From Patescibacteria group bacterium (GTDB lineage Bacteria > Patescibacteriota > Patescibacteriia > UBA9934 > GWF2-40-263): 64,000 bases of DNA. The notes under the pieces are model-generated. The model worked only from the letters and a program-made list of their open reading frames with translations, had not been told where the DNA came from and searched no databases. The stretch spans positions 481,181-545,180 of the forward strand of contig SCUM01000001.1 in NCBI GenBank assembly GCA_004297215.1, read 5' to 3'. A program made the position numbers and the translations under genes. Of the stretch, positions 1 to 25,422 are shown in pieces. Each line of letters opens with the position of its first letter. Position 1 is the stretch's first letter.

Positions 1-512
1 AAACTTGAAGGACCAAAACTTGAAGGACCAAAGGGCTTGAAAAAGGACGAAATTTGAAGAGAAAGGCGTTTATACGACGACTTTGCCGATGATGGCACCG
101 AAAATACGAACCAGTTCCCCTGCCTCGGCGGTCAGCCGTCCTCGTTCCTTCGCAAGCACGACACTGGAACCCACATCAAGGATTCCAAGCCAATACCCGC
201 TTTCACGCGATTCCTTCTTTGCAATCTTCAAACGAAGAACGAAATCTTTCCGACTTACCCCTTCGTTCCCTTCCAAATAATTCGCCCCAATGGACCCGGA
301 CGACCGAATGAGTTGTTTGCCATCTTCCTTGTTCCAAGGATTCATCGGCAGCCGCTTCACCAACTGACGGACGTCCATGGCGAACTCAGATGTCCGCCGC
401 TCAAGATCATAAATCCTCATAACTTCTTTCTATGCTATTTCAATCCTTCGCCCTTTCACCCTTCGTCCTTTCACGTTTCCATTGGTCCTTCAAGTTTTGG
501 TTCTTCAAGTTT
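1..512. mobile_element. Low-GC MITE-like element with terminal inverted repeats, carrying a four-helix-bundle gene as cargo. Left arm 1-66 is possibly truncated by the window edge; right arm 421-512.
   Basis: 1-30 aaacttgaaggaccaaaacttgaaggacc is the reverse complement of 483-512 ggtccttcaagttttggttcttcaagtttt. Both arms match the gene-less copies at 19901-20033 and 27920-28065. The arms are AT-rich within a roughly 65% GC context. Confidence 0.6.
70..420 (-). CDS. Four-helix-bundle protein (TIGR02436 family, formerly '23S rRNA intervening-sequence protein'; Avd-like).
   Basis: 116 aa. MRIYDLERRTSEFAMDVRQLVKRLP...GYWLGILDVG matches the conserved pattern of this family. Lower GC than its neighbours. 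Confidence 0.8.
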   Translation of the reverse strand: MRIYDLERRTSEFAMDVRQLVKRLPMNPWNKEDGKQLIRSSGSIGANYLEGNEGVSRKDFVLRLKIAKKESRESGYWLGILDVGSSVVLAKERGRLTAEAGELVRIFGAIIGKVVV

Positions 513-3048: not shown

Positions 3049-4344
3049 TTAGGCGAACGTCTTGGGGTGGATAACATCCGTTCCCATCCACTGGCGCAAG
3101 ACGACGGGGACGACGACCGACCCGTCCTTGTGCTGATAATTTTCAAGGATGGCGATCAGGATGCGGCCGATGGCGAACGCGGTGCCGTTGAGCGCATGCG
3201 CGAGCCCCTTCGCCTTCCCAGCCCCCCCTGAGCCTGCCGAAGGGTCCTTGTAGCGGATGTTGAGGCGACGGGTCTGGAAGTCGGTCGTATTGCTCGTGGA
3301 ATGCGTCTCGCGATAGCGGTTCTGCCCCGGCATCCAGGTCTCGATGTCGTACGTGCGGGCGGAGGGAGCCCCGATGTCGCCCGAGCACAGCGCGACCACC
3401 TGGTACGGGAGCTTGAGCCCTTGCATGAGCCGCTCCTGAAGCGACAGGATGAGCGCGTGCTCCGCGTCGGACTCCTCCGGCTTCGTGAAACTGAACATCT
3501 CCACCTTGTCGAACTGATGCATGCGCAGGATCCCCTTCGTGTCCTTGCCGTAGCTGCCAGCCTCACGGCGGTAGCATGGAGAAATGCCCACGTAGCGCAG
3601 CGGAAGGTCCTTCGCGTCCAGCGTCTCGTCCATGAGCATGGGGCCGATTGCCTGTTCGCTGGTGCCGATGAGCACCGCGTCGTCGTTCTTCAGGTGATAC
3701 ACCTCCTCCTCGCCTCCGTGATCGAGGTATCCCATCGCCGCCATGGCCTTGGTGGAAATGATGTGCGGCGGAAGCACGGGGACGAACCCCTCTTTCATGA
3801 GCTCGGAAAGGGCGTACTGCACGAGCGCCAACTCGAGCTGCACCGCGGCGCCGGTGAAATACGCGAATCGCGCTCCGGATACCTTCGCGGCGCGTTCCAC
3901 GTCGATCATCCCGAGCGCGGTCGCGAGCTCCATGTGGTCCTTCGCTTCGAAGTCGAACGTGGTCGGCTCCATGGATGTCCGGAGAACGACATTGCCGGTC
4001 TCGTCCTTCCCCTCCGGGACGTCGGCGCGAAGGATGTTGGGATACATCCGCACCTCACGCGCGAGCTCGGCTTCGATCTGGCCGAGCTCCGCCTCAAGCG
4101 CCTTGGCCGCCTCCTTCACTTCTTTCCCTTCCGCGGCCAGCGCCGGACGGGCCTCGGCGGAGGCCGTGGGAATCGCCTCGGCGATCTCATTCCCTCGGGC
4201 GCGCAGGGCGTCGATCTTGCCGATCTTCTTCGCGCGTTCCGCGGCCAGGCGCGAGGCCATGGACACGTCGATGGGCTTGCCGCGCTTGCGGTTGTTCTCG
4301 GCCACCAGCTCCGGGTTCTCCACGATCAGTTTCGGGTCGATCAT
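3049..4344 (-). CDS. serS: Seryl-tRNA synthetase.
   Basis: Full-length class II aaRS with an N-terminal coiled-coil arm and catalytic core (…GISPCYRREAGSYGKDTKGILRMHQFDKVEMF…). Start taken at MIDPKLIV. The longer ORF-track N-terminus reads through REP palindromes. Confidence 0.9.
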   Translation of the reverse strand: MIDPKLIVENPELVAENNRKRGKPIDVSMASRLAAERAKKIGKIDALRARGNEIAEAIPTASAEARPALAAEGKEVKEAAKALEAELGQIEAELAREVRMYPNILRADVPEGKDETGNVVLRTSMEPTTFDFEAKDHMELATALGMIDVERAAKVSGARFAYFTGAAVQLELALVQYALSELMKEGFVPVLPPHIISTKAMAAMGYLDHGGEEEVYHLKNDDAVLIGTSEQAIGPMLMDETLDAKDLPLRYVGISPCYRREAGSYGKDTKGILRMHQFDKVEMFSFTKPEESDAEHALILSLQERLMQGLKLPYQVVALCSGDIGAPSARTYDIETWMPGQNRYRETHSTSNTTDFQTRRLNIRYKDPSAGSGGAGKAKGLAHALNGTAFAIGRILIAILENYQHKDGSVVVPVVLRQWMGTDVIHPKTFA

Positions 4345-4389
4345 ACGTGGACATCTTGCCGGAGAAGGGGCAGGTTGTCCAAGCCCGAA

Positions 4390-5229
4390 TCCAACACCAG
4401 GTGTTGGATTCGAAGATCGCACCCGTCCAACACCCGGTGTTGGATATTTGACTTTTCAAGGTTTTTCATATAATCTTAACTCAATCTCATTCATGACCCT
4501 CCGGTTTTCGGGGGGTTTTGCTTTTCCAACACCGGGTGTTGGACCAAACTTATGCGCGAGACGTCATTTATGAACGGAGAGTACTATCATGTCTATAACC
4601 GTGGTGTGGACAAGCGCCTCATTTTCCAGGCTGAAAGAGACCGACTGCGCTTCATGAAAGGAATCGTGGCCTTCAATGATGTCGGACGCCATGCTACCAA
4701 GTCGCTCCAACGCATCAGCCCTGTGGTACCGAGCAAAACGCCCTACGTAGAAGTGGTAGCCTACACGCTGCTACCAAACCATTATCATTTTCTTCTTCGC
4801 CAGGTCGCCGATCGTGGCGTCCCTGAATTCATGCGCCGTGTCGGGACTGGGTTCACGAAATACTTCAACCTTCGCTATCAGCGAAATGGCCGGCTATTCC
4901 AATCACCATTCCAGGCAAAACATGTGATGGATGATGGCTACTTGCTCCATCTCTCTCGGTACATTCATCTCAACGTCCTCGATCTTTCATTCCCTGAATG
5001 GCGGGATGCTGGGATTCAAGATTGGCCAGCTGCCATACGCTCGATGCGAGGCTACCTTTGGTCAAGTGCCAAGGATTATCTGGAAGGAACCAAAAGATTC
5101 TATATTCGACCTGATTCCATCCTCGAACAGTTCAAGCTCCCGGACGCATATCCCCGCTTCCTGAAAGACTGGGTCCAACACCCGGTGTTGGACCCGTAGA
5201 TGGTGCCCGTCCAACACCCGGTGTTGGAC
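4390..5229 (+). mobile_element. REP-RAYT unit: a RAYT gene flanked by 3 upstream and 2 downstream REP palindromes.
   Basis: Copies of TCCAACACC(A/C)GGTGTTGGA at 4390-4408, 4425-4444, 4525-4543, 5173-5193 and 5209-5229. The RAYT CDS is about 48% GC versus about 65% in the flanks. Confidence 0.8.
4552..5199 (+). CDS. REP-associated tyrosine transposase (RAYT; IS200/IS605 TnpA-like HUH-Y1 enzyme).
   Basis: HUH motif NHYHFLL and a downstream conserved Tyr region (YIHLN). 215 aa. An alternative start is 4570 (MNGEYYHVYNRG). The C-terminus reads into REP4. Confidence 0.8.
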   Translation: MRETSFMNGEYYHVYNRGVDKRLIFQAERDRLRFMKGIVAFNDVGRHATKSLQRISPVVPSKTPYVEVVAYTLLPNHYHFLLRQVADRGVPEFMRRVGTGFTKYFNLRYQRNGRLFQSPFQAKHVMDDGYLLHLSRYIHLNVLDLSFPEWRDAGIQDWPAAIRSMRGYLWSSAKDYLEGTKRFYIRPDSILEQFKLPDAYPRFLKDWVQHPVLDP

Positions 5230-5392
5230 GGGAGGAAAAAGGCTAACCTTCGCCCCGCTCTTGACATATCCCCATTTTTCTGGCCACCATGGAAGTGCAA
5301 GTGGGCCCACGCGGGCTGGCCCAACGCTCTTTCAAACAGCCCCAGAACCACCCGCCGCTCCCCAAAGGACGACGGGCAGAAAGGAGGGCGCC

Positions 5393-6123: not shown

Positions 6124-9100
6124 TTAAGGCTGCACGATAACGTATCCATTGTAATTGACCCATGGATTATCATCCGGGCAGCCGGTACCACCAGGGCACT
6201 GCAAGGGACGGCACTCATTTTGACTAAGGCCACCCTGACTCTCACCGTCGTAACACTTATCCGATGCATCAACGCCACCGGGACAGACGCCTGTGCAATA
6301 TCCCCAATTATCCTTCACGAACACGCGGGGCTGGAACACGCAGGCGCCGCCGGCCTCTGGCACCTGGCCGCCCGTGCAGGGGGCGTTCAGCAGGCGGCCG
6401 TTATCCGGATCGATGCGGCAGGTGCGACCGGCGGTTTCCAGGTCGGCCACGAGCGTCGCGCTGCAGCGGTAGTCGTGAGAGTAGGATCTGTACGTAGAAT
6501 CGCATGCCCGCGGAGTGAGGCCGAAGTTTGCCGGGCTGCTCCCGCCGCAGATGGGTTCGCCGTCGCGCGTAGCGCCGCGGTGGTTCTTGTAGAAGTTCCC
6601 GTCGTCGGTGGAACCGCTCTGGCTGTCGGTGGGCCAGTCGGCAGGCCCGTTCCCAGGTCCAGGATGTCCGTCGCCCCAGTCCACCACGATGTTCTTGATG
6701 GGCATCTGGTTGGAATTCGCGTACGTATAGAAGCTCACGGCCACGTGCTGCCGGCCGTCGATGCCCTTCACGTTGCCGCCCGCGAGTTCGTTCACCGTGA
6801 AGGTGCCGGGCGACCCTTCTTCGCACGTGCTTCCCTCGCATTTCTCCACGGACGTCACGACGGGGACGGTGCCGGACTTATTCGAAAGGTCCAGATCATC
6901 CGACGTCGGGACGTATGCGCCGCCCGTTTCCCCGTCCGGATCGTCCTCAAAATCGTACTGGAATCGGTTGAACACCTTCGTGAAGAACCGCGAGATGCCG
7001 CTCTGCACGCTCACGCCGAATCCCGTAAGGCCGTTGTCAGGCGTCGGTGCGGCCGGATCGCTGCTCCCGACCGCCGCCAAACCCGCAAGCGTGGCCGACA
7101 CCTCGCCATTTACCGCCTTCCGCTCGTCGCCGCTGCCATCGACCGCATCCAAATCCTCGAACGGCCGCGCGAGCGCGAACGGGAGCATCCCTTCCTTCAG
7201 CGCCGGACCCTGCGCGTACTCCCCTTCGCCTGGATATGTGCGCGCGCCCGCAGAGCAGGCGTCGGCCAATGCGGTCTCGTCCCCGACATTCAAACCGATC
7301 GTGCCTATTCCCCCTCCGGTTCCCGCCCCATCATCGTCCGCGCACACCGGCAGCGGCCAGCTATCGCTCCCGACGACGTTTCGAGCCATCGCGAATTCGC
7401 CCGTATCGGGATCGCGCACGAACATCTCGTCCAGCAATGCGCGGCCGGCCGGGGTGGGGATCGTCTCCGGCCCGTACGGGAACGCTTGCCCGCCGTACGC
7501 GTACGATGACGTGAATCCGCTGTCACTCCAGAGGTTGTCGGTCTGCGCCTTGTTATCGAGCCCCTTGCTGCCGGTGCCTGTGACCTGCACGAGCTCCTGA
7601 CAGGCGTAGTAGGGATAGACGCTTCCGGTGACGAACGGCCCGTCGGACACGCATTCGTTCGCGTCGGAGAGGTCATCCACCGCCGAAGAGCCCAGGCAGA
7701 TTGTCATGCAGATCCCGAAGGATGTCCCGCCCACCACGTACGCGGCCGGGTTGCTCGCACAGCTCGCAAGGCAGTCTGCGAGATTGTCCGTTGCGGCTCC
7801 TGTGCCCTCGATCCGGCAATCATCCTTCACGGCGCAGCGTTTGCCAGTGAGGTCGCAGTGCTTCACCTTCGCGCCCGGGGCGCGATGGGCGATCCCGTAG
7901 GATCCTTGCGGGTCATTTTGCAGTCTTTCGTCATTGTTGTTGTCATCCTTGGGCGTCCCGTTGTCCGTCTGCACCCACCCGTACCCTCCCGGTCCCCACC
8001 CGCGGCCAGGCATCCCGTCGAACGTGCGGATCCAGATCGGGTCATAGCCGGTGCCTGGCGTCATGGGCACGCCGCGCACCGAGCAGTCCGCGAGATATTG
8101 GAAATCCGACACGCTCCCCGGGCCATTTGCGATGTCCCCAAGGCCGTACACAGGCGTCTCGAACACGGACGTACCTAGCTTGGAATAATGCGCGAGGCAA
8201 TCTTCTCCCGGGTTCGCCCCCGCCGCATGGTGAGAATTTTGGGGGATGCAGATGTACGGGCAGTCATCCGTGGGGCGCGTCTCGCTCACGGCTAACGGAT
8301 CAGGGATGCGCGGCTGATCGAAATCCGATGCGTTGTTCCCCGCTTTGCAGAATGTGCCTTTGTCTTTGGTCTCATCCGAACTCCCACCGTTCCCTTTCTC
8401 GTCGCTGTCGCAATAACCAAGCATGGCCACATACCCGTCCGGACAGAACGCGTTGCGGATGCAGCCGGTGTCATCGTTATTTTTTTGCGGAGAGTGGGAA
8501 TCATTCTTTTCCCCGTATGAACCAAAGTCGCAATAGCCGCCTGGCCCGGCTTCCGCATCGGACGCTGCGCACGCATAATCCACGCTCCGTGTATCAGGGT
8601 CGGGCGAAGTCGGAAGGCCTGTCGTAGAATCCAATTGCACGCCCAACGGCCACAAATCCGCATACACCGCCGTCTCCGCGCAGTAGTAGATTTCCCCGGT
8701 GGCGTCGGCCGGGCGCTCGAAGCCAGCTTCGATGGACTTGCCGAACAGGTCGGTGGCGCCGGAGAGCTGGTCCACGGGGAGCCAGGTGAGGCAAGAACGG
8801 TCGCTGGGATCCTGGCTTCCGAACAGCTGGAACGAGGAGTCGCGCTCGAGACAGTACCCTTCCCACCCGAGCAGGGTATCCTCGGCCGTGCGCTTGGAGC
8901 AGCTGCCCGGACGGAATCCGGCGCTCACGGGGTTTTCGGACGTCGGCGGAGTGCCGGAATCGCAATCGGCGTCGTATTCGCATTCCATCCCTTTCTTCTC
9001 CGGGTTGGTGCACACGCCCGTGGGCGGCGCATCGGCGCGATCCGTGCCGTAATACCTGGTGATGGCCCCGTCGCCGTACGTCACCTTCTGGTACGAACAC

Positions 9101-12100
9101 AGGCAGTCGTCGCTCGTCGCCCACCCCGAGCCGGATGCGACGGGGGCGCAGGTGTTGCTGCCGGAAAACTGGGGGATGAACGTAACCGGGGTCGGCGGTT
9201 GGAGATGTTCGCTGTCCCCGGCATTGATGTCAGGGCTATGCACCGAGACGATCTTCCCGGCGTCGAACGGCGAGGTGGGTTCGGGGTATGCGCGGCAAGC
9301 CGTGGACTCGGCGGTGGTGAGCTGAAGCTTGGCAATGCCGGAGACGTCGGTGAGGCAGCTGTCGTTGTAGCAGGCTCCAAGCTTCGCCTTGGCGCTCGAG
9401 ATGCACTGCTGCGTACCGGAACACGCGACGGAACCGTCGGGCGAACAGGTGTCATCGAGCGTCTTCAGCTGGTCCACGCACTTGAGGTCGTCACAGATGC
9501 GGAATCCGCTCGCCGTGCAATCCGCGTCGGTCACGCATCCGGCGTTGTTCGTGGCCTGGCAGAAGCCGAACACGCACGTGTCGTCGCTCACGGAGGAGGA
9601 ACAATCGTTGTCCGTGACGCATCCCGCGTTGGAGTTCTTGCAGAACCCGACGGCGCACGAACCGCCGCGGCCCACGCCGCCCGTTCCCGCTTCTTGGCAG
9701 CTTCCGGCCACGTAGGCGAGGCGGAAATCCTCCGGGGCGTCTTCGCAGGTCGCGTCCGAGGCGCAGTCGTCGTCGGAGGCGCAGGCGATCTCGCGACCGA
9801 CGATCGTGCCCGGAAGGGTGACGCCCAGGTCGAGGATGGGATTGAGATTGACGCCGCGGTTGGGGATATTGATGTTGACGGAGGGGGCGGAACCTTGGGC
9901 CGGGTTGCCGTCCGCATCCACGCACCACCTCCCCGGGTTCACGTTGACTTGCGACAGGAGGTCCATCGAAAGCTGGTTCGGGATGGCGTACCCGGAGTAC
10001 TCGAGCCCGTTCCAGCTCACGTCGCGGCTTGTGTAGACGGCCTCATCGAGCGTGATGGGCTGCGGGTCCACGAACCCGGCGCAGGCGTTGTCGCCGGTGC
10101 CTTGCCCGCGCGTCTCGCACAGCGCCAGGCCGTCGCAGATGGTGCGGAAGGTGGACGTGTTGGGGTCCCAGCTCGCGTGCGAGCTCGCGCACTGCAGCCA
10201 CTCCGCACAGTCGCGGTTGCGGTTCACCTTGATGACGTCGTTCGCGTCGTTCTTGAACGCGGCGTCGATGCTCACGGCGGCCACCGCGGTCCCGTCGCTG
10301 CCCTTGCCCGTGCGCAGGTCCACGCAGGTACCGGAAACGGCGTCGCCGCGGTCGTCTTCGAGCGACGGGCAGTCCGAGTCCACGAGGCAGGAACCGGCGT
10401 ACTCGGCGGCGGCATCGGCCGTGGACGTGTCAGAATTCCCCACGGCGAGGTCGCGATCCGCGCCCACGGGATAGCGGCACCGACGGCTGCACAGCGCCTG
10501 CGGGTCCGGAAGGCCGGCGAGATTCGCGAGGTCGTACCCGGCGGAGGTCGCGGGGCAAGACACCGGGTCGCGCAGGTCGAACGGGCGGCCGCCGAACAGC
10601 ACGTCGGCATGCTCGGAGGCCACGTAGCTTGGACCGGACGCGAACTTGAGCGACGGGTCGGTGACATTGCGGAACACGGCGCAGCCGAGCTTCTGGCTCA
10701 CCTGGCCTTCGCAGCGTTCGCTGCCGGTAGCGGTATCGGAGAGCGCATCATTATCGAGGAAGGTGTACTGCACCCCCTGCGGATACGCGCCGTGGTCGGT
10801 GTCGGACGGGTCCACGAACGCGGTGCACAGGTCGTACTGGGAGCCGCACTCCCCCACCCAGCCTTCGTAGCCGGCGTCGCCGTTGCGCCGTATGCCGAAC
10901 GTGTTGCCGCTGATCACGACGTCCTCGTCGCACGGGACGATCGTCCCCTTCACGAACCATCCCGAGGCGTTCTGGCCGCCCACCCTGATGTCGGTCTTGA
11001 ACTCGCAGCGCTGGTCGAGGGGATCCTTGAAGTAGAAGTTGCCGTCCTTGGTGGAGGAGAACTCCTGGCAGAACAGGTCCTCGTGCCCGCACAGCACCTG
11101 GTCGTACGTGTCCGGGTCGTCGATCACGAACGCGCTCGTAAACGAGGTGACCGCGGTCTTGTCCTGATTGAACTTGGGAGTGCCCACTTCGGTGCAGCCC
11201 ACGGCGGCCACGGAACACTGGTCGGAGCCGTCGTCCACGAGATAGAGCGGGGAGTCGTTGTACACGACGCGCGCCTCCGGGCCCATCGTCACGTTTGGCG
11301 TCCCCGGGGGGATCACGCCGTCAGCATCGAACAGGCAGAATCTCTTTCCCGGAGCGATCTGGCATGCCGTGCGGCCCTGCACCGCGCACGGGGTGAGGAC
11401 GGACACGGCCGCGCCACCCGTCGCGACGCAACGCGCGTTAAAGGTCTGGCCGTACTCCGACTCCGACGCATGCGTGTCGAAGAACGCTTCGCAGCCCACC
11501 GCCTGCTCGCTGCACAGCCGGCCGAAGCGGTAGAACTCGTCGGTCGCGCCTGCGCGATCCGTGTACGCTTCGCAGCCGAGATAGAACTGCGGCGCGTTCT
11601 GGCCGTTGGGGGCCGTGTCGCAGGAGGCCGGGGTTACCCAGGAATCCTTGATGAGCGCGAGCGTGTCGTCGGCCATGGTGACCCGGACGTTATCCAGGAA
11701 GAACTCGGTGCCGCCGCTCACGGCCGTGAACTGCAGGGCGGACTGGTCGTCGAACCCGTCGATCGTGGAGGAATCGATGGGGCCGAGGGAGTACGGCCGC
11801 CAGTCCGTGGTGAGGTCGGCTGGGACGTCCGAAATCGGGGAGGGCGTTCCATCGACGGGGCGGAACGCCACGTTCACGTCGCCGGTGCCACGCGCGAAGA
11901 AACTCACGGTAAACGTCCTCCCAGGGACGACGTTCCCCACAAACGGGCTCACGCTCCCTTCAAGGGTGGAAGCCCCTGCCCCGGCGGCGGCGTTGCTCAC
12001 GCGCAGCGAATGCCCGCCCGCGGAAACCGCGTCGTTGCTCACCGCGACCGTGGCGCTCCCCTGCGCGGTCCAGTCGGTCGCGCCGTTTTCCTCGAACGTC

Positions 12101-15100
12101 TCCTCAAGCACGGTGGCCACGTTGCGGCCCCCGCCGCCGGTGTAGGCGCGGCACCCCGCGGCAGAGGCGGGACATGAGCGCGATCGCGACGGCAGGCCGA
12201 AGTAATGGCATTCGCCGGAAGCGGTGAAGAACCCGCCCGTGACGAAACAGGTGTCCCGCGCCGCGGCGGGGTCGGAAACGAGCTGGGTCTTGCGGTACGG
12301 GTGGCAGCTCTCGTCCACGAACACCGTCTCGCTGAAGCGGCGGTAGTGGATGTCCCCGTCGCCGTCGTAGAATTCGCCGCAGTCGAGATCGGTGATGGTG
12401 TCGGAGTGCTCGTCGCACGCGGCGTCCGCGCGCGTCGCCGGATCCGCGTCGTCGCACCTGATCGAATTCGGGTCGTCCATCACCGTGGCCGTGCACGGCG
12501 CGTCGTCGCGATTGGACTTGAGCAGCTGCGTCGGGCGCAGCTGGAACCCCTGCGCCTGCGTGCCGGTCCAGGTGAAATAGGTGACGCGATCCGCCCCGGC
12601 TTGGACGGGGGTGGTGCACGCGCGCAAATCGGTGTAGTGCTCCACCGCTTCCCCGCCCGCGGCGAGCGTATCGAGGTTCGTGAACGCATCGCAGCCGACG
12701 TTTGCCTCGGAACAGGCCTGTGCGGTCGTCGGGATGAAATTCACCGGGAACGCGGAGGCCTCGTACTTGGTTTCCTCCTGCTTGAACGCGGCGTACCCCA
12801 CGCACGCGGCCGGGCAGCGGTCGATGTCGGAGGCGACGGCCGAGACGGACGGGTCGCCGTCCTCGGGCCGGTAACGCTCGCACCCGACGTCCACGGCCGC
12901 GCACACGGGCGCGAAGCCGGCGCATTCCTTGGGATCCGTGGGCAATCCGCGGCAGTCGAGGTAGCTCGGCGGAACCTTGAGCGAGGCGACGGCCGCGTCC
13001 ACGTTGCCGGCATACCCGTCGGTGAACGGCGTGGCGTTTTCTCCCCGTTCAAGTTGCACCGAGTCGAGCGTTGCGCCGGACGGGGCGCTGAACGAGACGC
13101 TCGCGAGCGCGTTTGCGGGGAGGCTGAACGTGCAGGTCGTCGCGGCGTACGCCGCCGAAAGATTCGGCGCGGCCTGCACCTGGTTGCGCGGGGCAGCGGC
13201 GCCGATCACGGCGCACCCGCGCGTGGAGACATTGGTGAGGTCGATCGCGACGCCGGCAAGGGTGGTGAGCGTGACCGTCCCGACGGCCGTGCCGCTCCCC
13301 TTCGCCTCAAAGCTCAAGGTATAGAAGGAATCCTTGGACAAGAACACGCCGGATTGCGAAATCGTCCCATTCGTCCCGGATCCGATCCCCACGGCATCGG
13401 ACCCCTGATCGGCGCCGAGCGCATCGGAGTACGTGACGGCCGATCCGAGCTGCCAGCCTTCGACGACGGGCGGGCTCCCGGCCGTGCCGCGCTCGAAGCT
13501 CCCGTTCTGCAACAGGTTGAAGGTGACGTTTTCCGCGCGAAGCAGCCCGGCGCATCCGGCATCGTTGCCGTTGCAGGACTTCACGTCATTGTTGAAATAC
13601 GCGCGATCCCTGAACGCGTCCTGGGCGGCGTCCTTGGCGGCGACCACGTACGTTTGGCCGGCGGGGAGGAACTCGAACGTGTCATCGGCCGTGTCCGACG
13701 CGGTCCCGTGCGTATCCGGGAACTTGTTCACCCTGGACCACAGGCAGCCGGCGTTCCCGGAGTTGCAGCCGGCGAAATCCACGGTGTTGAGCAGGAACCC
13801 GTTGCGCTGGTTCGTCTGCGTGTTCTGGAGCGCCAGGCACCCGGCGAAGTCGGCCGGACAGGCGTCGCCGCGGAACTGCCAGACGTTCTTCTCGCGCACG
13901 CAGTAGCCGAACCCGCCCGTGCACTCGCCGTCGGCGTTCTCGGACAGGCAGCTCGGGGTGTCTGCGCACACCGGGGCGCGCGCGCCGGAGTTCGCCGCCG
14001 CGAGCGTCTCGCCGTTCACGAACGCGCGGCACTGGGTGTCGGGATACTTGAGGATCCAATTTGGATCGATGAGGTGGCACCAGCGGTGCATGTCGTCGGC
14101 GGTCCCTGCGGCATTGCAGTCGTCAAACCCGGCGATCACGTCCTCGAGCTTCACCGTCTCGTTGGGCTTCACCTTCCCCGCCGCCATCTCCCAGCCGATG
14201 GGGAGGATGCGCGCCTTGCGCAGCTTCACCAGATTGCCGAAACAATAGGCGCTGTCCTTGCACAGGATGTCCTGGTTCTTGGGGTCGTCGGGTCGCACGA
14301 GCGGCCAATCCTTGTGGATGAACCGCTCCTCGATCGCCTGCGCGACCGTGAGCGGATTGTCCGTGGCTCCGCGCGAGACCGCTTGGAAGAACGGCTGGTC
14401 GATGACGCAATGGTTGGGTCCGCGCATGACCACCCCGCCCGTGGGACAGGTGATGAATTCGCCGAGGATGTTGTAGTTGTCGACCGACGTGGGCGTGACC
14501 GCGATCAGCTTGGAGAAGTGCTCCTGGGCCTGCTCGCGCGCGTTGCTGACCACGGCAAGCGAATCGAACGGATTGCTCGGGAGCTCCGGGGCCGGGAAGA
14601 AACCCTCGTAAAGCTGCTGCGTCCATTTGGAGCCGAGGGTGCTCGTGAACACGCCCACCGTATGCCAGAGCATCCCCCACCAGAACTGCGGGTTGGCCGC
14701 GATGAGCGCCGCCACCCGCTCCTGCTTCTTCTCGTCCTTGCCCACGTTGGCGTGCAGGAAATCCTCGCGCAGGAGGACGGCGGGGGTCTTTATCTGGCCG
14801 GTCACCACGTCGGTGACGTCCTTGAATCCGCCGTTGAACTCCCGGTCGAGCAGGTCGAGGGTGCGCTTCTTGTTGTATTCCTCGCGCGTGGAGAAGGCGA
14901 GGTCGATGGACATGGACAGCTCGTTCTGGCCCGGTCGCAGCCCCTGCGCAAACGCGGCGAGCACGGGGCCGGTGGGATCCTTGGCGAGTTCCGCGGCCGA
15001 AGAAAGGAAGCTATTCCAGTTCTTGCCAATGGAAAGGAAATCGCATTTGGGCTTCTGTACCGTGTAAGATGCCTTGATGCCCAACGAGAGCGCAAGCTTG

Positions 15101-15627
15101 AAACCGTCCGTAAGCAGGCCTGGGTTGCAGATGTCGAACTTGAAGCCGGTGAGCTCGCCGAACCCGGTGTTCAGGAAATCCATGGACCCCCCCACGATGT
15201 CGAGGCCGATCGGATTGTTCCCGGAATCGAGCGGGTCGAACACGTGGTAGAGCGGCTGGTCGCCCTTTCCGCCGCTTGCCACGAACAGGGCGGACTCGTA
15301 CGCGAGGCGATCGAGCACGAACGACATGAAATCGAACAGGGCGAACACGATGTTCGCCTCTACGATCGGCTTGAGCATCCCCTTGTCCACGGTCTCGATG
15401 GAGGCCGCCGCATGTTCCGCGATGCACCCCTCGCTGTTACCGGCAACGACAGGACAAGGGACGGCTTTCAGCGCCGCCTCCGTTGCGGGCACGGCCGGAC
15501 TGGACGCGCTTTCATCCGCATGCGCAGGAACGGCAAGGAAGAACCCGATGATCGAGACCGAACATACGATCGCGACCGCCCCGGCGACCCATCGGCTCAA
15601 CGCTGGAATGCCTCCCGTTCTACGCAT
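6124..15627 (-). CDS. Giant secreted Cys-rich surface protein (3167 aa).
   Basis: Single 9.5-kb ORF with cleavable signal MRRTGGIPALSRWVAGAVAIVCSVSIIGFFLAVPAHA. More than 150 Cys. Repeated modules such as GFCKNSNAGCVTDNDC / GFCQATNNAGCVTDADC. All overlapping opposite-strand ORFs are Arg/Pro-rich shadows. Confidence 0.85.
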   Translation of the reverse strand: MRRTGGIPALSRWVAGAVAIVCSVSIIGFFLAVPAHADESASSPAVPATEAALKAVPCPVVAGNSEGCIAEHAAASIETVDKGMLKPIVEANIVFALFDFMSFVLDRLAYESALFVASGGKGDQPLYHVFDPLDSGNNPIGLDIVGGSMDFLNTGFGELTGFKFDICNPGLLTDGFKLALSLGIKASYTVQKPKCDFLSIGKNWNSFLSSAAELAKDPTGPVLAAFAQGLRPGQNELSMSIDLAFSTREEYNKKRTLDLLDREFNGGFKDVTDVVTGQIKTPAVLLREDFLHANVGKDEKKQERVAALIAANPQFWWGMLWHTVGVFTSTLGSKWTQQLYEGFFPAPELPSNPFDSLAVVSNAREQAQEHFSKLIAVTPTSVDNYNILGEFITCPTGGVVMRGPNHCVIDQPFFQAVSRGATDNPLTVAQAIEERFIHKDWPLVRPDDPKNQDILCKDSAYCFGNLVKLRKARILPIGWEMAAGKVKPNETVKLEDVIAGFDDCNAAGTADDMHRWCHLIDPNWILKYPDTQCRAFVNGETLAAANSGARAPVCADTPSCLSENADGECTGGFGYCVREKNVWQFRGDACPADFAGCLALQNTQTNQRNGFLLNTVDFAGCNSGNAGCLWSRVNKFPDTHGTASDTADDTFEFLPAGQTYVVAAKDAAQDAFRDRAYFNNDVKSCNGNDAGCAGLLRAENVTFNLLQNGSFERGTAGSPPVVEGWQLGSAVTYSDALGADQGSDAVGIGSGTNGTISQSGVFLSKDSFYTLSFEAKGSGTAVGTVTLTTLAGVAIDLTNVSTRGCAVIGAAAPRNQVQAAPNLSAAYAATTCTFSLPANALASVSFSAPSGATLDSVQLERGENATPFTDGYAGNVDAAVASLKVPPSYLDCRGLPTDPKECAGFAPVCAAVDVGCERYRPEDGDPSVSAVASDIDRCPAACVGYAAFKQEETKYEASAFPVNFIPTTAQACSEANVGCDAFTNLDTLAAGGEAVEHYTDLRACTTPVQAGADRVTYFTWTGTQAQGFQLRPTQLLKSNRDDAPCTATVMDDPNSIRCDDADPATRADAACDEHSDTITDLDCGEFYDGDGDIHYRRFSETVFVDESCHPYRKTQLVSDPAAARDTCFVTGGFFTASGECHYFGLPSRSRSCPASAAGCRAYTGGGGRNVATVLEETFEENGATDWTAQGSATVAVSNDAVSAGGHSLRVSNAAAGAGASTLEGSVSPFVGNVVPGRTFTVSFFARGTGDVNVAFRPVDGTPSPISDVPADLTTDWRPYSLGPIDSSTIDGFDDQSALQFTAVSGGTEFFLDNVRVTMADDTLALIKDSWVTPASCDTAPNGQNAPQFYLGCEAYTDRAGATDEFYRFGRLCSEQAVGCEAFFDTHASESEYGQTFNARCVATGGAAVSVLTPCAVQGRTACQIAPGKRFCLFDADGVIPPGTPNVTMGPEARVVYNDSPLYLVDDGSDQCSVAAVGCTEVGTPKFNQDKTAVTSFTSAFVIDDPDTYDQVLCGHEDLFCQEFSSTKDGNFYFKDPLDQRCEFKTDIRVGGQNASGWFVKGTIVPCDEDVVISGNTFGIRRNGDAGYEGWVGECGSQYDLCTAFVDPSDTDHGAYPQGVQYTFLDNDALSDTATGSERCEGQVSQKLGCAVFRNVTDPSLKFASGPSYVASEHADVLFGGRPFDLRDPVSCPATSAGYDLANLAGLPDPQALCSRRCRYPVGADRDLAVGNSDTSTADAAAEYAGSCLVDSDCPSLEDDRGDAVSGTCVDLRTGKGSDGTAVAAVSIDAAFKNDANDVIKVNRNRDCAEWLQCASSHASWDPNTSTFRTICDGLALCETRGQGTGDNACAGFVDPQPITLDEAVYTSRDVSWNGLEYSGYAIPNQLSMDLLSQVNVNPGRWCVDADGNPAQGSAPSVNINIPNRGVNLNPILDLGVTLPGTIVGREIACASDDDCASDATCEDAPEDFRLAYVAGSCQEAGTGGVGRGGSCAVGFCKNSNAGCVTDNDCSSSVSDDTCVFGFCQATNNAGCVTDADCTASGFRICDDLKCVDQLKTLDDTCSPDGSVACSGTQQCISSAKAKLGACYNDSCLTDVSGIAKLQLTTAESTACRAYPEPTSPFDAGKIVSVHSPDINAGDSEHLQPPTPVTFIPQFSGSNTCAPVASGSGWATSDDCLCSYQKVTYGDGAITRYYGTDRADAPPTGVCTNPEKKGMECEYDADCDSGTPPTSENPVSAGFRPGSCSKRTAEDTLLGWEGYCLERDSSFQLFGSQDPSDRSCLTWLPVDQLSGATDLFGKSIEAGFERPADATGEIYYCAETAVYADLWPLGVQLDSTTGLPTSPDPDTRSVDYACAASDAEAGPGGYCDFGSYGEKNDSHSPQKNNDDTGCIRNAFCPDGYVAMLGYCDSDEKGNGGSSDETKDKGTFCKAGNNASDFDQPRIPDPLAVSETRPTDDCPYICIPQNSHHAAGANPGEDCLAHYSKLGTSVFETPVYGLGDIANGPGSVSDFQYLADCSVRGVPMTPGTGYDPIWIRTFDGMPGRGWGPGGYGWVQTDNGTPKDDNNNDERLQNDPQGSYGIAHRAPGAKVKHCDLTGKRCAVKDDCRIEGTGAATDNLADCLASCASNPAAYVVGGTSFGICMTICLGSSAVDDLSDANECVSDGPFVTGSVYPYYACQELVQVTGTGSKGLDNKAQTDNLWSDSGFTSSYAYGGQAFPYGPETIPTPAGRALLDEMFVRDPDTGEFAMARNVVGSDSWPLPVCADDDGAGTGGGIGTIGLNVGDETALADACSAGARTYPGEGEYAQGPALKEGMLPFALARPFEDLDAVDGSGDERKAVNGEVSATLAGLAAVGSSDPAAPTPDNGLTGFGVSVQSGISRFFTKVFNRFQYDFEDDPDGETGGAYVPTSDDLDLSNKSGTVPVVTSVEKCEGSTCEEGSPGTFTVNELAGGNVKGIDGRQHVAVSFYTYANSNQMPIKNIVVDWGDGHPGPGNGPADWPTDSQSGSTDDGNFYKNHRGATRDGEPICGGSSPANFGLTPRACDSTYRSYSHDYRCSATLVADLETAGRTCRIDPDNGRLLNAPCTGGQVPEAGGACVFQPRVFVKDNWGYCTGVCPGGVDASDKCYDGESQGGLSQNECRPLQCPGGTGCPDDNPWVNYNGYVIVQP

Positions 15628-20036: not shown

Positions 20037-21737
<1,701 letters not shown>

Positions 21738-23210: not shown

Positions 23211-24482
23211 TCAACCTTTCCCCCGTACGACCGAGGCGCCCGCCACGGCGGCGAGCGACAGCCCGGCCCAGAGGCTCCACAGGTAATGGTCGAACAGGCC
23301 AAGGGTGATGAGCAAGACGGTTCCGGAGAGGGCAAAGACGCGTTCGGAGCGGACGTGGATTCCGTTCACCGCCTTCCATCCGCGACGCAAGAACGGAAGG
23401 GAGGCGAACAATCCTACGAGGCCCACCTCGACGAGATACAAGAGGAATGCGTTATGGACCGGCTGATATTCGTACGCCGGCGCGCCGGGTCGGAACGTGG
23501 AAAGCGCGAGGGTGTAGAGCGACGGGCCCACTCCGGTGACCGGGCTGATCGCAAAGGCCTCGGGAGCCTCTCGGTACGAAGCCGAACGCTCGGCGAGCGA
23601 ACGGGCCTCGAGGCGCGCGCCGGGAGTGAAGCGCGTAAAAAGCTGGGTGTGGAACACGAGCATGGTGATGACGAGCGCCAGCAGCGATGCCCAGATGAGC
23701 GGCAGCCCGGCGTGCGCGCGAAGGCGGCCGTGCCACATGAGCGCCGCGACCACGAACCCGAGCGAAAGCGCCGCGGCAAGCCAGGCACCGCGTGAGAAGG
23801 TGATGACGAGCGTCGCGGCGAGGAGCATGGCGGGCAACGCGAGATGGTGTCGGCGCGCGTGGTCGCGCAAACGCGACGCGAGGACGGCCAGGGCCCAAAG
23901 CCCGACAGCCAAAAATCCACCGAACACGTTCGGATGCGGGAACGGGCCGTAGGCGCGCAGCGTGCGCTCCCCTGCCGCCGACTCGACGACCGACTGCCCG
24001 AGCGTCGCGGCATCATGACCGGCAAGCCCGAGCCATTTCTGCGGGAATGACGAGCCGGCAATGACCTGGTCCCAGCCGAGCAACGCCGCGGGGATGAGCC
24101 CGACGACGAATGCCGTGAGCGCCTGCGTCGCGTCCGTGCGTTCGTCGAGCAGGAGCAGGAACAGGAGCGCGGCCATGGCGGCATGGAAGGTGGCGCCTAG
24201 CGCGACCGCGGGGATGGGCGTGAAGACGGACGAGAACGCGCAGGCGAGGAGGATCCACGAGAGCGGGATCGCGAATCGCGACCTGTCGCCGAGCCGAAGA
24301 CGGCCGTAGAGCGCGGCGGAGGCGAGCACGAGCAGCTCCGCGGCGTAGAGGGAGACGGTGCCGTACTCCCAGGGGAGACCGTCCATCTTTCCGGATACGA
24401 CGATCCAACGCGTCTGCCAAGGAAGCAGCACGAGGGCGAGCAGGAGGGCGAAGCGCCCGAGGCGTTCACGCGTCATAGGCAT
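23211..24482 (-). CDS. O-antigen ligase family membrane protein (Wzy_C/RfaL-like).
   Basis: At least 10 predicted TM helices. Motifs GPFPHPNVFGGFL, ITFSRGAWLA and PVHNAFLLYLVEVGLVGL are typical of O-antigen polymerase/ligase domains. Confidence 0.7.
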   Translation of the reverse strand: MPMTRERLGRFALLLALVLLPWQTRWIVVSGKMDGLPWEYGTVSLYAAELLVLASAALYGRLRLGDRSRFAIPLSWILLACAFSSVFTPIPAVALGATFHAAMAALLFLLLLDERTDATQALTAFVVGLIPAALLGWDQVIAGSSFPQKWLGLAGHDAATLGQSVVESAAGERTLRAYGPFPHPNVFGGFLAVGLWALAVLASRLRDHARRHHLALPAMLLAATLVITFSRGAWLAAALSLGFVVAALMWHGRLRAHAGLPLIWASLLALVITMLVFHTQLFTRFTPGARLEARSLAERSASYREAPEAFAISPVTGVGPSLYTLALSTFRPGAPAYEYQPVHNAFLLYLVEVGLVGLFASLPFLRRGWKAVNGIHVRSERVFALSGTVLLITLGLFDHYLWSLWAGLSLAAVAGASVVRGKG

Positions 24483-25422
24483 AGGTCCGGCAAAGGGCCA
24501 TCCATCGGTCGCGGTATTCCGCACGGCGGTCGTTTTCGTGGAACTTGAGCATCTCGTCGTTCACCACCACGCGGGAGTCGCGGTTCATGAGGGTGCGCAG
24601 GGAGTGCGGGAGGCGGCGGAGTTGGATCCAGCGGGCCAGACGCTCGACATGTCCACCACGTCCAACACCCGGTGTTGGACGTGTCGTTTCCTTAGGAAAA
24701 CCAGGGTTCTCAAGATCTCGATTTTCAAAATCGCCAGGTTTTTTACAAAAACTGGAATTCCCAACACCAGGTGTTGGGTCCTGTGAACGGACATCTCCGT
24801 ACACCGTCCGCAGCGACCGGATCCACACCTCCAGATACGGATCCCCTCCCGGCAAAGCGAGCGTCTCGAGGGCGGGCGCGGCCGTGGACGCGAAGAAGCT
24901 GAAGCAGAACGGGTCGCGCGCGCCGTCTTCGGGCCTCTGGCGCAGGATCGCGAATGGCGTGACGCACATGAGCCGCGCGGTCCAGGTAAGCCCCGGCATC
25001 GTGCGTACGAACAGGTCGATGTCGCTCTCCGGCCGCGTATGCATGAACGCGAGCGTGTTCGCGGCCGCGACGGCGCGCACGCCCGGGACACGACGAAGGA
25101 ATCGGACGGCGCGGCGAAGGGCACGCATCTTGCGCAGCGCGTCACGACGACGCGCGTGGCGCGTACGCGCGAGCGCCACGGCGTCAGTGCCCGGAAGCGC
25201 ATGGAAGCCGTCCTTAGACGGGTATCCCCCGCCCCGTAGCGCGGCATCGACCTCGTCGAGGGACGGCTTCTCGCCCGTGACGAACAACCATTTCCAGGTC
25301 TCGAACGCCGTGGGGGCGTAGTCAAAAAGCGAAAACCAAGCGAGGGTCCGGAGAATGGCCTTGTGGAGCGCTTCGTCCATAAACGCAAAGGATGCCCGTC
25401 TGGGGCATCCTACATGCTTCAT
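24466..25422 (-). CDS. Hypothetical protein (possible minimal nucleotidyltransferase-like motif) that contains an in-frame REP doublet.
   Basis: A 318-aa ORF reads through two REP palindromes (translated PTPGVG…PTPGVG). TRPESDIDLFV resembles an NTase hG[GS]…DxD motif. Overlaps the ligase start by about 17 nt. Confidence 0.45.
   Translation of the reverse strand: MKHVGCPRRASFAFMDEALHKAILRTLAWFSLFDYAPTAFETWKWLFVTGEKPSLDEVDAALRGGGYPSKDGFHALPGTDAVALARTRHARRRDALRKMRALRRAVRFLRRVPGVRAVAAANTLAFMHTRPESDIDLFVRTMPGLTWTARLMCVTPFAILRQRPEDGARDPFCFSFFASTAAPALETLALPGGDPYLEVWIRSLRTVYGDVRSQDPTPGVGNSSFCKKPGDFENRDLENPGFPKETTRPTPGVGRGGHVERLARWIQLRRLPHSLRTLMNRDSRVVVNDEMLKFHENDRRAEYRDRWMALCRTYAYDA
24660..24778. 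repeat. REP doublet with an AT-rich spacer (BIME-like), located inside an ORF.
   Basis: gtccaacacccggtgttggac (24660-24680) and cccaacaccaggtgttggg (24760-24778) flank an 80-bp low-GC spacer. Confidence 0.75.

Follow-up and report, generated by a model that had tools for sequence, protein, structure and literature searches.

What joins a short palindrome to the one gene that it surrounds? The question is raised by a locus in a Patescibacteria group bacterium (assembly GCA_004297215.1, contig SCUM01000001.1), at positions 4390 to 5229 of a stretch of 64,000 nucleotides that was analysed as a whole and is termed here the window. An open reading frame (ORF) of 215 amino acids is found there with copies of a perfect palindrome on both sides. 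The original prediction described the locus as a recently acquired unit made up of repetitive extragenic palindromic (REP) sequences and their REP-associated tyrosine transposase (RAYT). The unit is probably REPtron-like, that is, a single-copy and inherited gene for a class-2 HUH/Y1 nuclease-ligase of the RAYT/TnpA-REP kind, together with a cognate hairpin palindrome. The prediction was therefore right in kind, and it went wrong over the history of the unit and over some of the labels.

This reading is carried by the predicted fold and catalytic motifs of the protein, the bracketing of the gene by palindromes throughout the family, the co-variation of palindrome and protein, the synteny of the locus, and the extra copies of the palindrome, some of which lie in frame within genes. 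These are taken up in turn below, followed by a comparison with known systems and by the alternatives. Coordinates of the features are collected in Table 1.

Palindromes that bracket the ORF

The sequence TCCAACACCnGGTGTTGGA, in pattern form CAACACCnGGTGTTG, is a perfect palindrome. Five copies bracket the ORF, three upstream (4390-4408, 4426-4444 and 4525-4543) and two downstream (5174-5192 and 5210-5228), just as had been predicted. Two further copies are present in the window, one at 24661-24679 and one, the variant CCCAACACCaGGTGTTGGG, at 24760-24778. Seven sites of this 19-mer compare with 0.00 expected from 100 dinucleotide-preserving shuffles; for the 15-nt core of the palindrome the shuffles give 0.17. 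All five local copies have perfect arms, and in four of the seven window copies the perfect arms reach 12-13 nt. Every copy is predicted to fold into a stable hairpin as single-stranded DNA (ssDNA), and the orientation of a copy is set solely by its central base.

The two ends of the unit form a 55-bp direct repeat (4390-4444 and 5174-5228, identical at 48 of 55 positions), each repeat consisting of a palindrome doublet with a 17-bp spacer. A REPIN consists of two inverted REPs with a short spacer that fold into one long hairpin. Of the two doublets here, the 5′ one can form one long hairpin; the 3′ doublet favours two separate hairpins. A comparison of the unit with known RNA families yielded sub-threshold matches to microRNA precursors only, which are generic hairpins.

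The HUH/Y1 protein

The 215-amino-acid protein with the HYHFLL sequence, as named in the original prediction, is present, and its NHYHFLL segment holds the HUH motif H77-Y-H79. Two hidden Markov model (HMM) families are the sole ones matched by the protein, Y1_Tnp (Pfam PF01797) and REP_Tyr_transpos (NCBIfam NF047646). Y1_Tnp is matched by all of 28 aligned family members at E <= 1e-3 (best 1e-10), and REP_Tyr_transpos by 27 of them at that threshold (best 4.9e-14). Residues H77, H79 and R136-Y137-I138-H139-N141 are invariant in this alignment, as are an N-terminal YH-x-x-NRGV and a C-terminal W-S-S. The HUH histidines align with the HLH of the ISDra2 transposase TnpA, and in a profile alignment RYI falls over the KYI of that protein, with Y137 in a predicted helix (residues 128-140). 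Judged by these alignments, Y137 is the putative single catalytic tyrosine on the C-terminal helix of the core. The consensus of the family around it is RYIHLNP; the window protein reads RYIHLNV, which retains Y and N and has V in place of P.

An AlphaFold (AF2) model computed from the 28-member alignment has a pLDDT of 91 and a pTM of 0.88. Among solved structures, the best match is to 4ER8 (E 3e-6), in which the E. coli TnpA-REP is in complex with a REP hairpin; the transposases of ISDra2, IS608 and IS200 come next. The modelled protein has the HUH/Y1 (TnpA-Y1) fold and, as its best structural match is a RAYT, it appears closer in type to RAYTs than to IS200 transposases. Fold and motifs thus agree with the predicted identity as an HUH-Y1 transposase.

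The C-terminus is about 15 residues shorter than that of most homologs and stops inside palindrome 4. An ortholog with 62% identity, at the locus L043 described below, has the same short ending, so the truncation is old and tolerated.

Relatives are numerous. A word-index search gave 2,050, nearly all of which carry PF01797; those with names are mostly from Candidatus Uhrbacteria and other Patescibacteria, with some from Omnitrophota. When the search was exhaustive, 13,515 cluster representatives were recovered at E <= 1e-3, and 250 when the threshold was set to E <= 1e-30. Viral contigs gave 23 pattern matches, none of which was confirmed as a relative. The gene itself is present once in the window, and no second copy was detected across the 64 kb. 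A protein identical to that of the window (P0001, a 209-amino-acid start variant) is recorded solely from a Logan assembly, and neighbouring proteins in the same metagenome-assembled genome have NCBI accessions; the gene may be unannotated or flagged as a pseudogene in the deposited record.

Association of palindrome and protein in the family

Relatives of the locus were compared at 85 loci, mostly from Patescibacteria, comprising 80 metagenome loci, the loci L005, L034, L043 and L008, and the window. The count took in perfect palindromes whose arms measure 9 nt or more. They are about ninefold denser close to the gene, at 2.54 per kb in the 300 bp next to its ends, than in the remaining sequence, at 0.27 per kb. 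Under this strict perfect-arm criterion, the same palindrome stands on both sides of the gene in 26 of the 75 loci with enough flanking sequence. Each locus has a palindrome of its own, examples being TTGAAGTCsGACTTCAA, ACTTGGCGGTTnAACCGCCAAGT and TCCAAGGACnGTCCTTGGA. From the end of the upstream copy to the start codon the median distance is 20 nt; from the stop codon to the beginning of the downstream copy it is 2 nt, with a range of -28 to +52. The overlap of palindrome 4 with the end of the ORF is therefore normal for the family. Bracketing by a cognate perfect palindrome is a property of the family as a whole.

Palindrome and protein also co-vary. Protein identity and arm identity are correlated with r = 0.21, a value reached in 0 of 2000 permutations. 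In the syntenic orthologs L043 and L125 (Candidatus Uhrbacteria RIFCSPHIGHO2_01_FULL_63_20), the palindromes can be compared locus by locus. The arms are TCCAACACC n GGTGTTGGA in the window, ACCAAGACC n GGTCTTGGT in L043 and GCCATGACC n GGTCATGGC in L125, and the three differ by compensated changes in the arms. The comparison with related genomes that had been proposed thus shows each ortholog with its own compensated variant.

Copies within genes and in other genomes

Palindromes 6 and 7 were expected from the prediction at 24.66-24.78 kb and are present there; they are not extragenic, however, and are read in frame within a gene. The encoded protein is lengthened by about 40 residues (…PTPGVG-33 aa-PTPGVG…) in a variable linker, and its conserved C-terminal part stays in frame past the insert. 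Five separate hairpins are predicted for the 131-nt unit as a whole (z -6.2). The insert is missing from the closest orthologs of this host gene (64-73% identity in the alignment), and L129, a more distant syntenic ortholog, carries a single compensated variant, CCAACGCCgGGCGTTGG, in this linker. Homology of the 80-bp spacer between the two palindromes (24680-24759) to the 80-bp leader of the ORF (4445-4524) was considered and set aside, as scores are at the level of shuffled sequences (z -0.2 forward and 1.4 reverse). Rickettsia palindromic elements are another instance of palindromic elements inside protein-coding genes.

The exact 19-mer is found in 41 stretches of GTDB representative genomes. 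Named Patescibacteria (Andersenbacteria, Zambryskibacteria, Paceibacterota, Saccharibacteria, Falkowbacteria and Levyibacteriota) account for 25 distinct sites, unnamed bacteria or Omnitrophota for 7 and other phyla for 10; about 9 are calculated by chance for 596 Gb. Pairing extends past the 19-mer with locus-specific bases in 19 of the 25 sites in Patescibacteria (p ~1e-18). No such extension is seen at the 10 sites in other phyla and, since their number also matches the expectation, these are treated as chance. Other Patescibacteria genomes have 2-7 exact copies on separate contigs. Most of the copies in GTDB genomes are not adjacent to a homolog of the gene. Where the 19-mer does adjoin one (L005, L034 and L121), the proteins are only 31-37% identical to the window protein, and one palindrome core is cognate to three protein lineages.

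Palindromes are also present within the enzyme's own gene. An intact ORF contains a perfect palindrome in frame, usually its own cognate, in 26 of the 85 loci (about 30%). These internal copies cluster at nt ~155-205 and nt ~433-468 of the gene (e.g. L121:100-1000 and L005:47-703). The former site corresponds to a variable loop, modelled with lower confidence, between the first helix and the HUH strand, and the latter lies just past the tyrosine helix. No internal copy is present in the window gene, and a search of its variable loop for a remnant gave no match within 3 mismatches. REPs inside genes (PMC3733652), and inside tnpA-REP genes of subclass 2.4 (PMC6006769), have already been described. 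The internal copies are not new in kind and can be explained simply, by permissive loops together with local hopping.

Synteny, base composition and history

Recent acquisition had been proposed from the low GC content of the gene. The history of the locus can be followed with serS, which is divergently transcribed next to the ORF and serves as the synteny anchor. The two closest serS orthologs with usable context, both from Uhrbacteria, carry a RAYT homolog in the same serS-divergent slot. In L043, serS is 84% and the RAYT 62% identical to those of the window; in L125 the values are 80% and 49%, and the same giant ORF lies beyond the gene. The RAYT gene is missing in L126, where serS is 71% identical.

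The gene is indeed of low GC content in a background of about 65%, as the prediction held. The ORF has a GC content of 0.515, where 0.48 had been given, and the window as a whole has 0.650. At third codon positions (GC3) the ORF has 0.574, and serS, the neighbouring lipoprotein-like gene and the giant ORF have 0.84-0.86. The orthologs repeat this pattern, with GC3 values of 0.577 for the RAYT and 0.918 for serS in L043, and 0.683 and 0.863 in L125. In the 42 family loci of at least 5 kb, gene GC is below that of the surroundings in all 42, by a mean of 8.6 points, and it follows host GC with r = 0.86. A deficit that is universal in the family is therefore a standing family property and does not point to recent transfer. 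Nor can low GC serve to diagnose foreign DNA in this genome, because groEL (20037-21734, minus strand) has a GC content of 0.514 and a GC3 of 0.537; the adjoining groES has a GC3 of 0.891 and other genes have 0.82-0.89. With orthologs in the same slot of L043 and L125, the notion of recent acquisition is not borne out, and the unit is resident and vertically inherited. For genome scans the case calls for caution, as a GC deficit of 13 points is here a family trait and not evidence of recent transfer.

The number of palindromes has changed at this inherited locus. The window has five, and the orthologous loci have 3-4, some of them degenerate. L043 has two perfect upstream copies and degenerate downstream ones, and L125 has three and one about 650 bp off. 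Palindromes were thus gained in the window lineage relative to the orthologous loci, as was the pair within a gene whose closest orthologs are without it.

The leader and expression

Both hexamers of the TTGACT…TATAAT motif that had been noted as promoter-like are present upstream of the ORF. A canonical sigma-70 scan (16-18-nt spacer) detects no promoter in the leader, because the spacer between them is 15 nt. The syntenic loci keep the pair with a 17-nt spacer, as TTGACA-N17-TAAATT in L043 and TTGACT-N17-TATATT in L125, and both have an equivalent hairpin and T-run at the same place in the leader. The leader is conserved in structure and not in sequence (window 4448-4524, L043:620-700 and L125:7356-7433, minus strand). 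All three loci show the same order of elements, a palindrome, TTGACw-N15-17-TAnAnT, a GC-rich hairpin with T-run and a second palindrome. The gap between the last leader palindrome and the ATG is 8 nt in both the window and L125.

This architecture suggests low, controlled expression. The promoter-like site would be followed after about 20 nt by the terminator-like hairpin, with a palindrome 8 nt before the ATG, and palindrome 3 in the mRNA could mask the start region. The leader of IS200 also pairs a terminator-like hairpin with a hairpin that masks the start region.

Comparison with known systems

The unit was compared with known REPtrons, namely E. coli YafM/TnpA-REP (PDB 4ER8), groups 2-3 of Bertels and subclasses 2.2 and 2.5 of Quentin. 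It resembles them in the HUH/Y1 fold, a Y---N(P)-type motif and a single-copy gene bracketed by a cognate hairpin palindrome, and also in the copies elsewhere in the genome, the co-evolution of protein and palindrome and the vertical inheritance at a fixed locus. It differs in that the palindromes have no GT[AG]G foot, their arms in the window being perfect over 9-13 nt with a 1-nt centre and no bulge, and in the very low number of dispersed copies. The protein scores under the NCBIfam equivalog cut-off and is longer, with a helical C-terminal tail, and the host belongs to the phylum Patescibacteria.

The signature of class 2 TnpA-Y1 proteins is the tyrosine motif Y---NP (PMC6006769). Within this class, the protein is by inspection of its motifs closest to subclass 2.1, which equals group 1 of Bertels and the TIRYT/TIRtron of Di Nocera et al. 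2013 (PMC3733652; PMC6006769 Table 1). The likeness, seen against PMC6006769 Table 1 and not with the HMMs of its authors, consists of NH[YF]H, an 'FQ' that replaces the W motif, Y[IV]HLNP and a C-terminal SS. The corresponding motifs of the family are PNH[YF]H, LFQ/LFE, RYIHLN and WSS, in proteins of 209-260 amino acids. Length is similar as well, about 215-238 amino acids against a median of 238 for subclass 2.1. The flanking repeats of some TIRtrons are wholly self-complementary (PMC3733652), as are the palindromes here. On the other hand, subclass 2.1 was reported without REP-like sequences nearby (PMC6006769), whereas REP-like palindromes are near the gene in most loci of the window-protein clade. 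Neither a CGTC tag nor the GGGGWSAS of subclass 2.1/TIRYT was found at the palindromes, the latter being scanned for between 4300 and 5300. An HTH-like C-terminal domain (Bac_DnaA_C, HTH_23/28), as in subclass 2.1, was also undetected, Pfam giving Y1_Tnp only for the window protein and the 28 members.

In the shortness of the perfect stem and the tiny loop, the palindromes resemble those of a group 3 RAYT, the Stenotrophomonas maltophilia REPtron Sm (8-bp stem, 3-nt loop; PMC8266576). REPtron Sm is recognised as a folded single strand, and a perfect stem mattered for cleavage (PMC8266576). It requires GTAG and cuts at CT (PMC8266576), and neither signal is evident at the window palindromes. 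With IS200/IS605 elements, the unit has in common a related catalytic core and hairpins at both ends. It is unlike them in having Y137-I-H-L-N and not Y[IV]ENQ (Y---Q; PMC6006769 Table 1), and the 64 kb contain no multiple near-identical copies, no distinct imperfect left-end and right-end (LE/RE) hairpins and no tnpB. The pair at 24.66-24.78 kb and the internal copies of about 30% of homologs resemble intragenic REPs, as they are read in frame in intact ORFs. They are unlike known intragenic elements in that the internal copies recur at two fixed sites of the enzyme's own gene, across differing palindromes.

A full-text literature search that paired RAYT or REP with Patescibacteria or the candidate phyla radiation gave no paper on the topic. 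If the reading is right, systems of the REP/RAYT type extend to Patescibacteria, with genomes of about 1 Mb and very little intergenic space, where the palindromes are few and where some, lying in frame inside proteins, would shape coding sequences. Subclass-2.1-like proteins, earlier described as REP-less, are now linked to cognate palindromes. Dozens of natural pairs of protein and hairpin, with stems that are simple and perfect, are available in the clade, among them graded orthologous series with compensated changes. They should be useful for learning how Y1 enzymes of class 2 recognise a hairpin when no GTAG is there to guide them.

Proposed mechanism and alternative explanations

TnpA-REP enzymes have been tested from E. 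coli, Stenotrophomonas and Marinomonas (PMC8266576, PMC3479197). By analogy with these, the enzyme would bind the palindrome folded as a hairpin on ssDNA, for example on the lagging-strand template (PMC3479197, PMC8266576). Y137 would then cut beside the hairpin and form a 5′-phosphotyrosine link, after which the strand would be rejoined. In this way, palindromes or doublets might be copied to new sites and be kept alike within one genome, the gene itself staying in place.

A number of observations weigh against such a REPtron-like unit. The window protein matches both HMM families expected of a RAYT, yet it does so under the curated cut-offs (20.4 bits against 23 for PF01797, and 33 bits against an equivalog cut-off of 80 for NF047646), which makes the match borderline. 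Its tyrosine motif is YIHLNV instead of Y---NP. The tetranucleotide GT[AG]G, which defines classical REPs and guides cleavage in tested systems (PMC8266576), is found in 0 of 7 window copies and in 2 of 151 family palindromes, where about 10% is expected by chance, and no other conserved foot motif was detected at the palindromes. In this the palindromes depart from classical REPs. Flanking copies obey no fixed rule of orientation, 15 being inverted and 11 the same. Exact copies in other genomes are few, for example 3 on a 595-kb contig, and only two dispersed copies are present within the 64 kb; the predicted activity of the system in this genome is therefore plausible, with extra copies to its credit, and thinly supported. 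Enzyme activity in the window-protein clade is presumed by analogy with the tested TnpA-REP enzymes. Finally, a role purely in cis-regulation would also account for the constant placing of the palindromes with respect to start and stop codons.

The palindromes might indeed be mainly cis-acting, as terminators or insulators, autoregulation operators or mRNA hairpins, with a protein that does not mobilise them; copies elsewhere would then arise by other routes or act as hairpin terminators. The stereotyped positions, at median distances of 20 nt from the start and 2 nt from the stop, are in keeping with this, as are the low dispersed copy number, the separate terminator-like hairpin of the leader, and the A-runs and T-runs that flank several public copies in the manner of bidirectional terminators. 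Copies at unrelated sites, including those in frame in coding regions, are however ill-suited to a terminator or operator. Moreover, all copies in a lineage share the compensated changes of that lineage, and copying or homogenisation is needed to bring this about. The predicted fold and the residues of the protein are those of a DNA-cleaving enzyme and not of a repressor, and a mainly cis-acting role is considered unlikely. A decaying relic, in which the enzyme is inactive and the palindromes are fossils, would account for the sub-threshold HMM scores, the change of NP to NV, the loss of about 15 C-terminal residues with an end in palindrome 4, and an identical protein that has no NCBI accession though its neighbours do. 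Against decay, the ORF is intact and keeps every invariant residue of the family, the model is confident along its length, and the L043 ortholog of 62% identity ends alike; the arms of all five local copies are perfect, and copies have become more numerous than at the orthologous loci. A relic is accordingly quite improbable.

The third possibility, an autonomous insertion sequence (IS) of the IS200/IS605 type that entered recently from a low-GC donor, is highly improbable and is largely refuted by synteny. It could draw on the GC3 of 0.574 beside 0.84-0.86 in neighbouring genes, on the 55-bp direct repeats that bound the unit, and on the spread of relatives over many Patescibacteria and Omnitrophota. 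Yet the serS slot is occupied in L043 and L125, and RAYT identity drops in step with that of serS. The GC content of the gene is below that of the host in 42 of 42 loci and tracks it (r = 0.86), and groEL has an equally low GC3 of 0.537. The window holds one copy, with Y---N and not Y---Q and no tnpB, no relatives were confirmed on viral contigs, and the same perfect palindrome stands at both ends where distinct imperfect LE/RE hairpins would belong. A more speculative idea, to which we give little credence, is that of a self-editing cassette, with the hairpins as recombination sites by which the HUH enzyme, or DNA taken up by naturally competent cells, swaps gene segments or alleles. It is based on the presence of the cognate hairpin, in this clade of Patescibacteria and Omnitrophota, at four stereotyped places, before the start, at codons ~52-68 and ~145-156, and at the stop, and on the one palindrome core that is used by three protein lineages. 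If true, the idea would account for a GC deficit that persists and for palindromes that do not match the protein lineages, and the pattern would then not be a matter of insertions merely tolerated at permissive loops.

Features of the locus and neighbouring genes

Table 1. Positions of the ORF, its palindromes and associated features in the window
Feature	Coordinates	Strand	Remarks
serS	3049..4344	-	Divergently transcribed neighbour; synteny anchor
Palindrome 1	4386..4412		CGAATCCAACACC a GGTGTTGGATTCG; 13-nt perfect arms; outer member of 5′ doublet; ssDNA hairpin -11.9 kcal/mol, z -6.9
Palindrome 2	4426..4444		9-nt arms; inner member of 5′ doublet (4390-4444)
Promoter-like TTGACT-N15-TATAAT	4448..4474	+	TTGACT 4448-4453, TATAAT 4469-4474; putative function
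Terminator-like GC-rich hairpin, then T-run	4495..4524	+	10 pairs, then TTGCTTTT; putative function
Palindrome 3	4525..4543		Central G, opposite to copies 2, 4 and 5; ends 8 nt before ATG
RAYT-like, class-2 TnpA-Y1 HUH/Y1 ORF	4552..5199	+	215 aa; H77-Y-H79, Y137-I-H-L-N141
Palindrome 4	5171..5195		12-nt arms; overlaps last 7 codons of ORF (…VQHPVLDP*)
Palindrome 5	5206..5232		13-nt arms; outer member of 3′ doublet; hairpin -13.7 kcal/mol
Host gene of palindromes 6 and 7	24469..25422	-	Conserved Uhrbacteria protein, no Pfam domain; between yidC and Wzy-like gene
Palindrome 6	24657..24683		13-nt arms; inside ORF 24469-25422(-)
AT-rich spacer	24684..24759		Three small hairpins; between palindromes 6 and 7
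Palindrome 7	24760..24778		Variant CCCAACACCaGGTGTTGGG; inside ORF 24469-25422(-)

The giant ORF beyond the gene (6124-15627, minus strand) encodes 3167 amino acids and is without annotation. The syntenic ORF of L125 encodes 3102 amino acids, and the C-terminal parts of the two are 35-48% identical. In the related Uhrbacteria genome, a few kb beyond serS, genes for PrgI, TraC-like and TraG/DUF87 P-loop proteins, which are conjugation or type IV secretion-like, are found (L124/L125:15987-17272).

At the beginning of the window (1-400, minus strand) there is a fragment of a low-GC (0.49) ORF with the translated sequence …RTSEFAMDVRQLVKRLP…GYWLGILD. It presumably resembles the four-helix-bundle or 23S rRNA intervening-sequence protein family. 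A gene with a match to the Pfam family of four-helix-bundle/23S rRNA intervening-sequence proteins is present near serS in L126.

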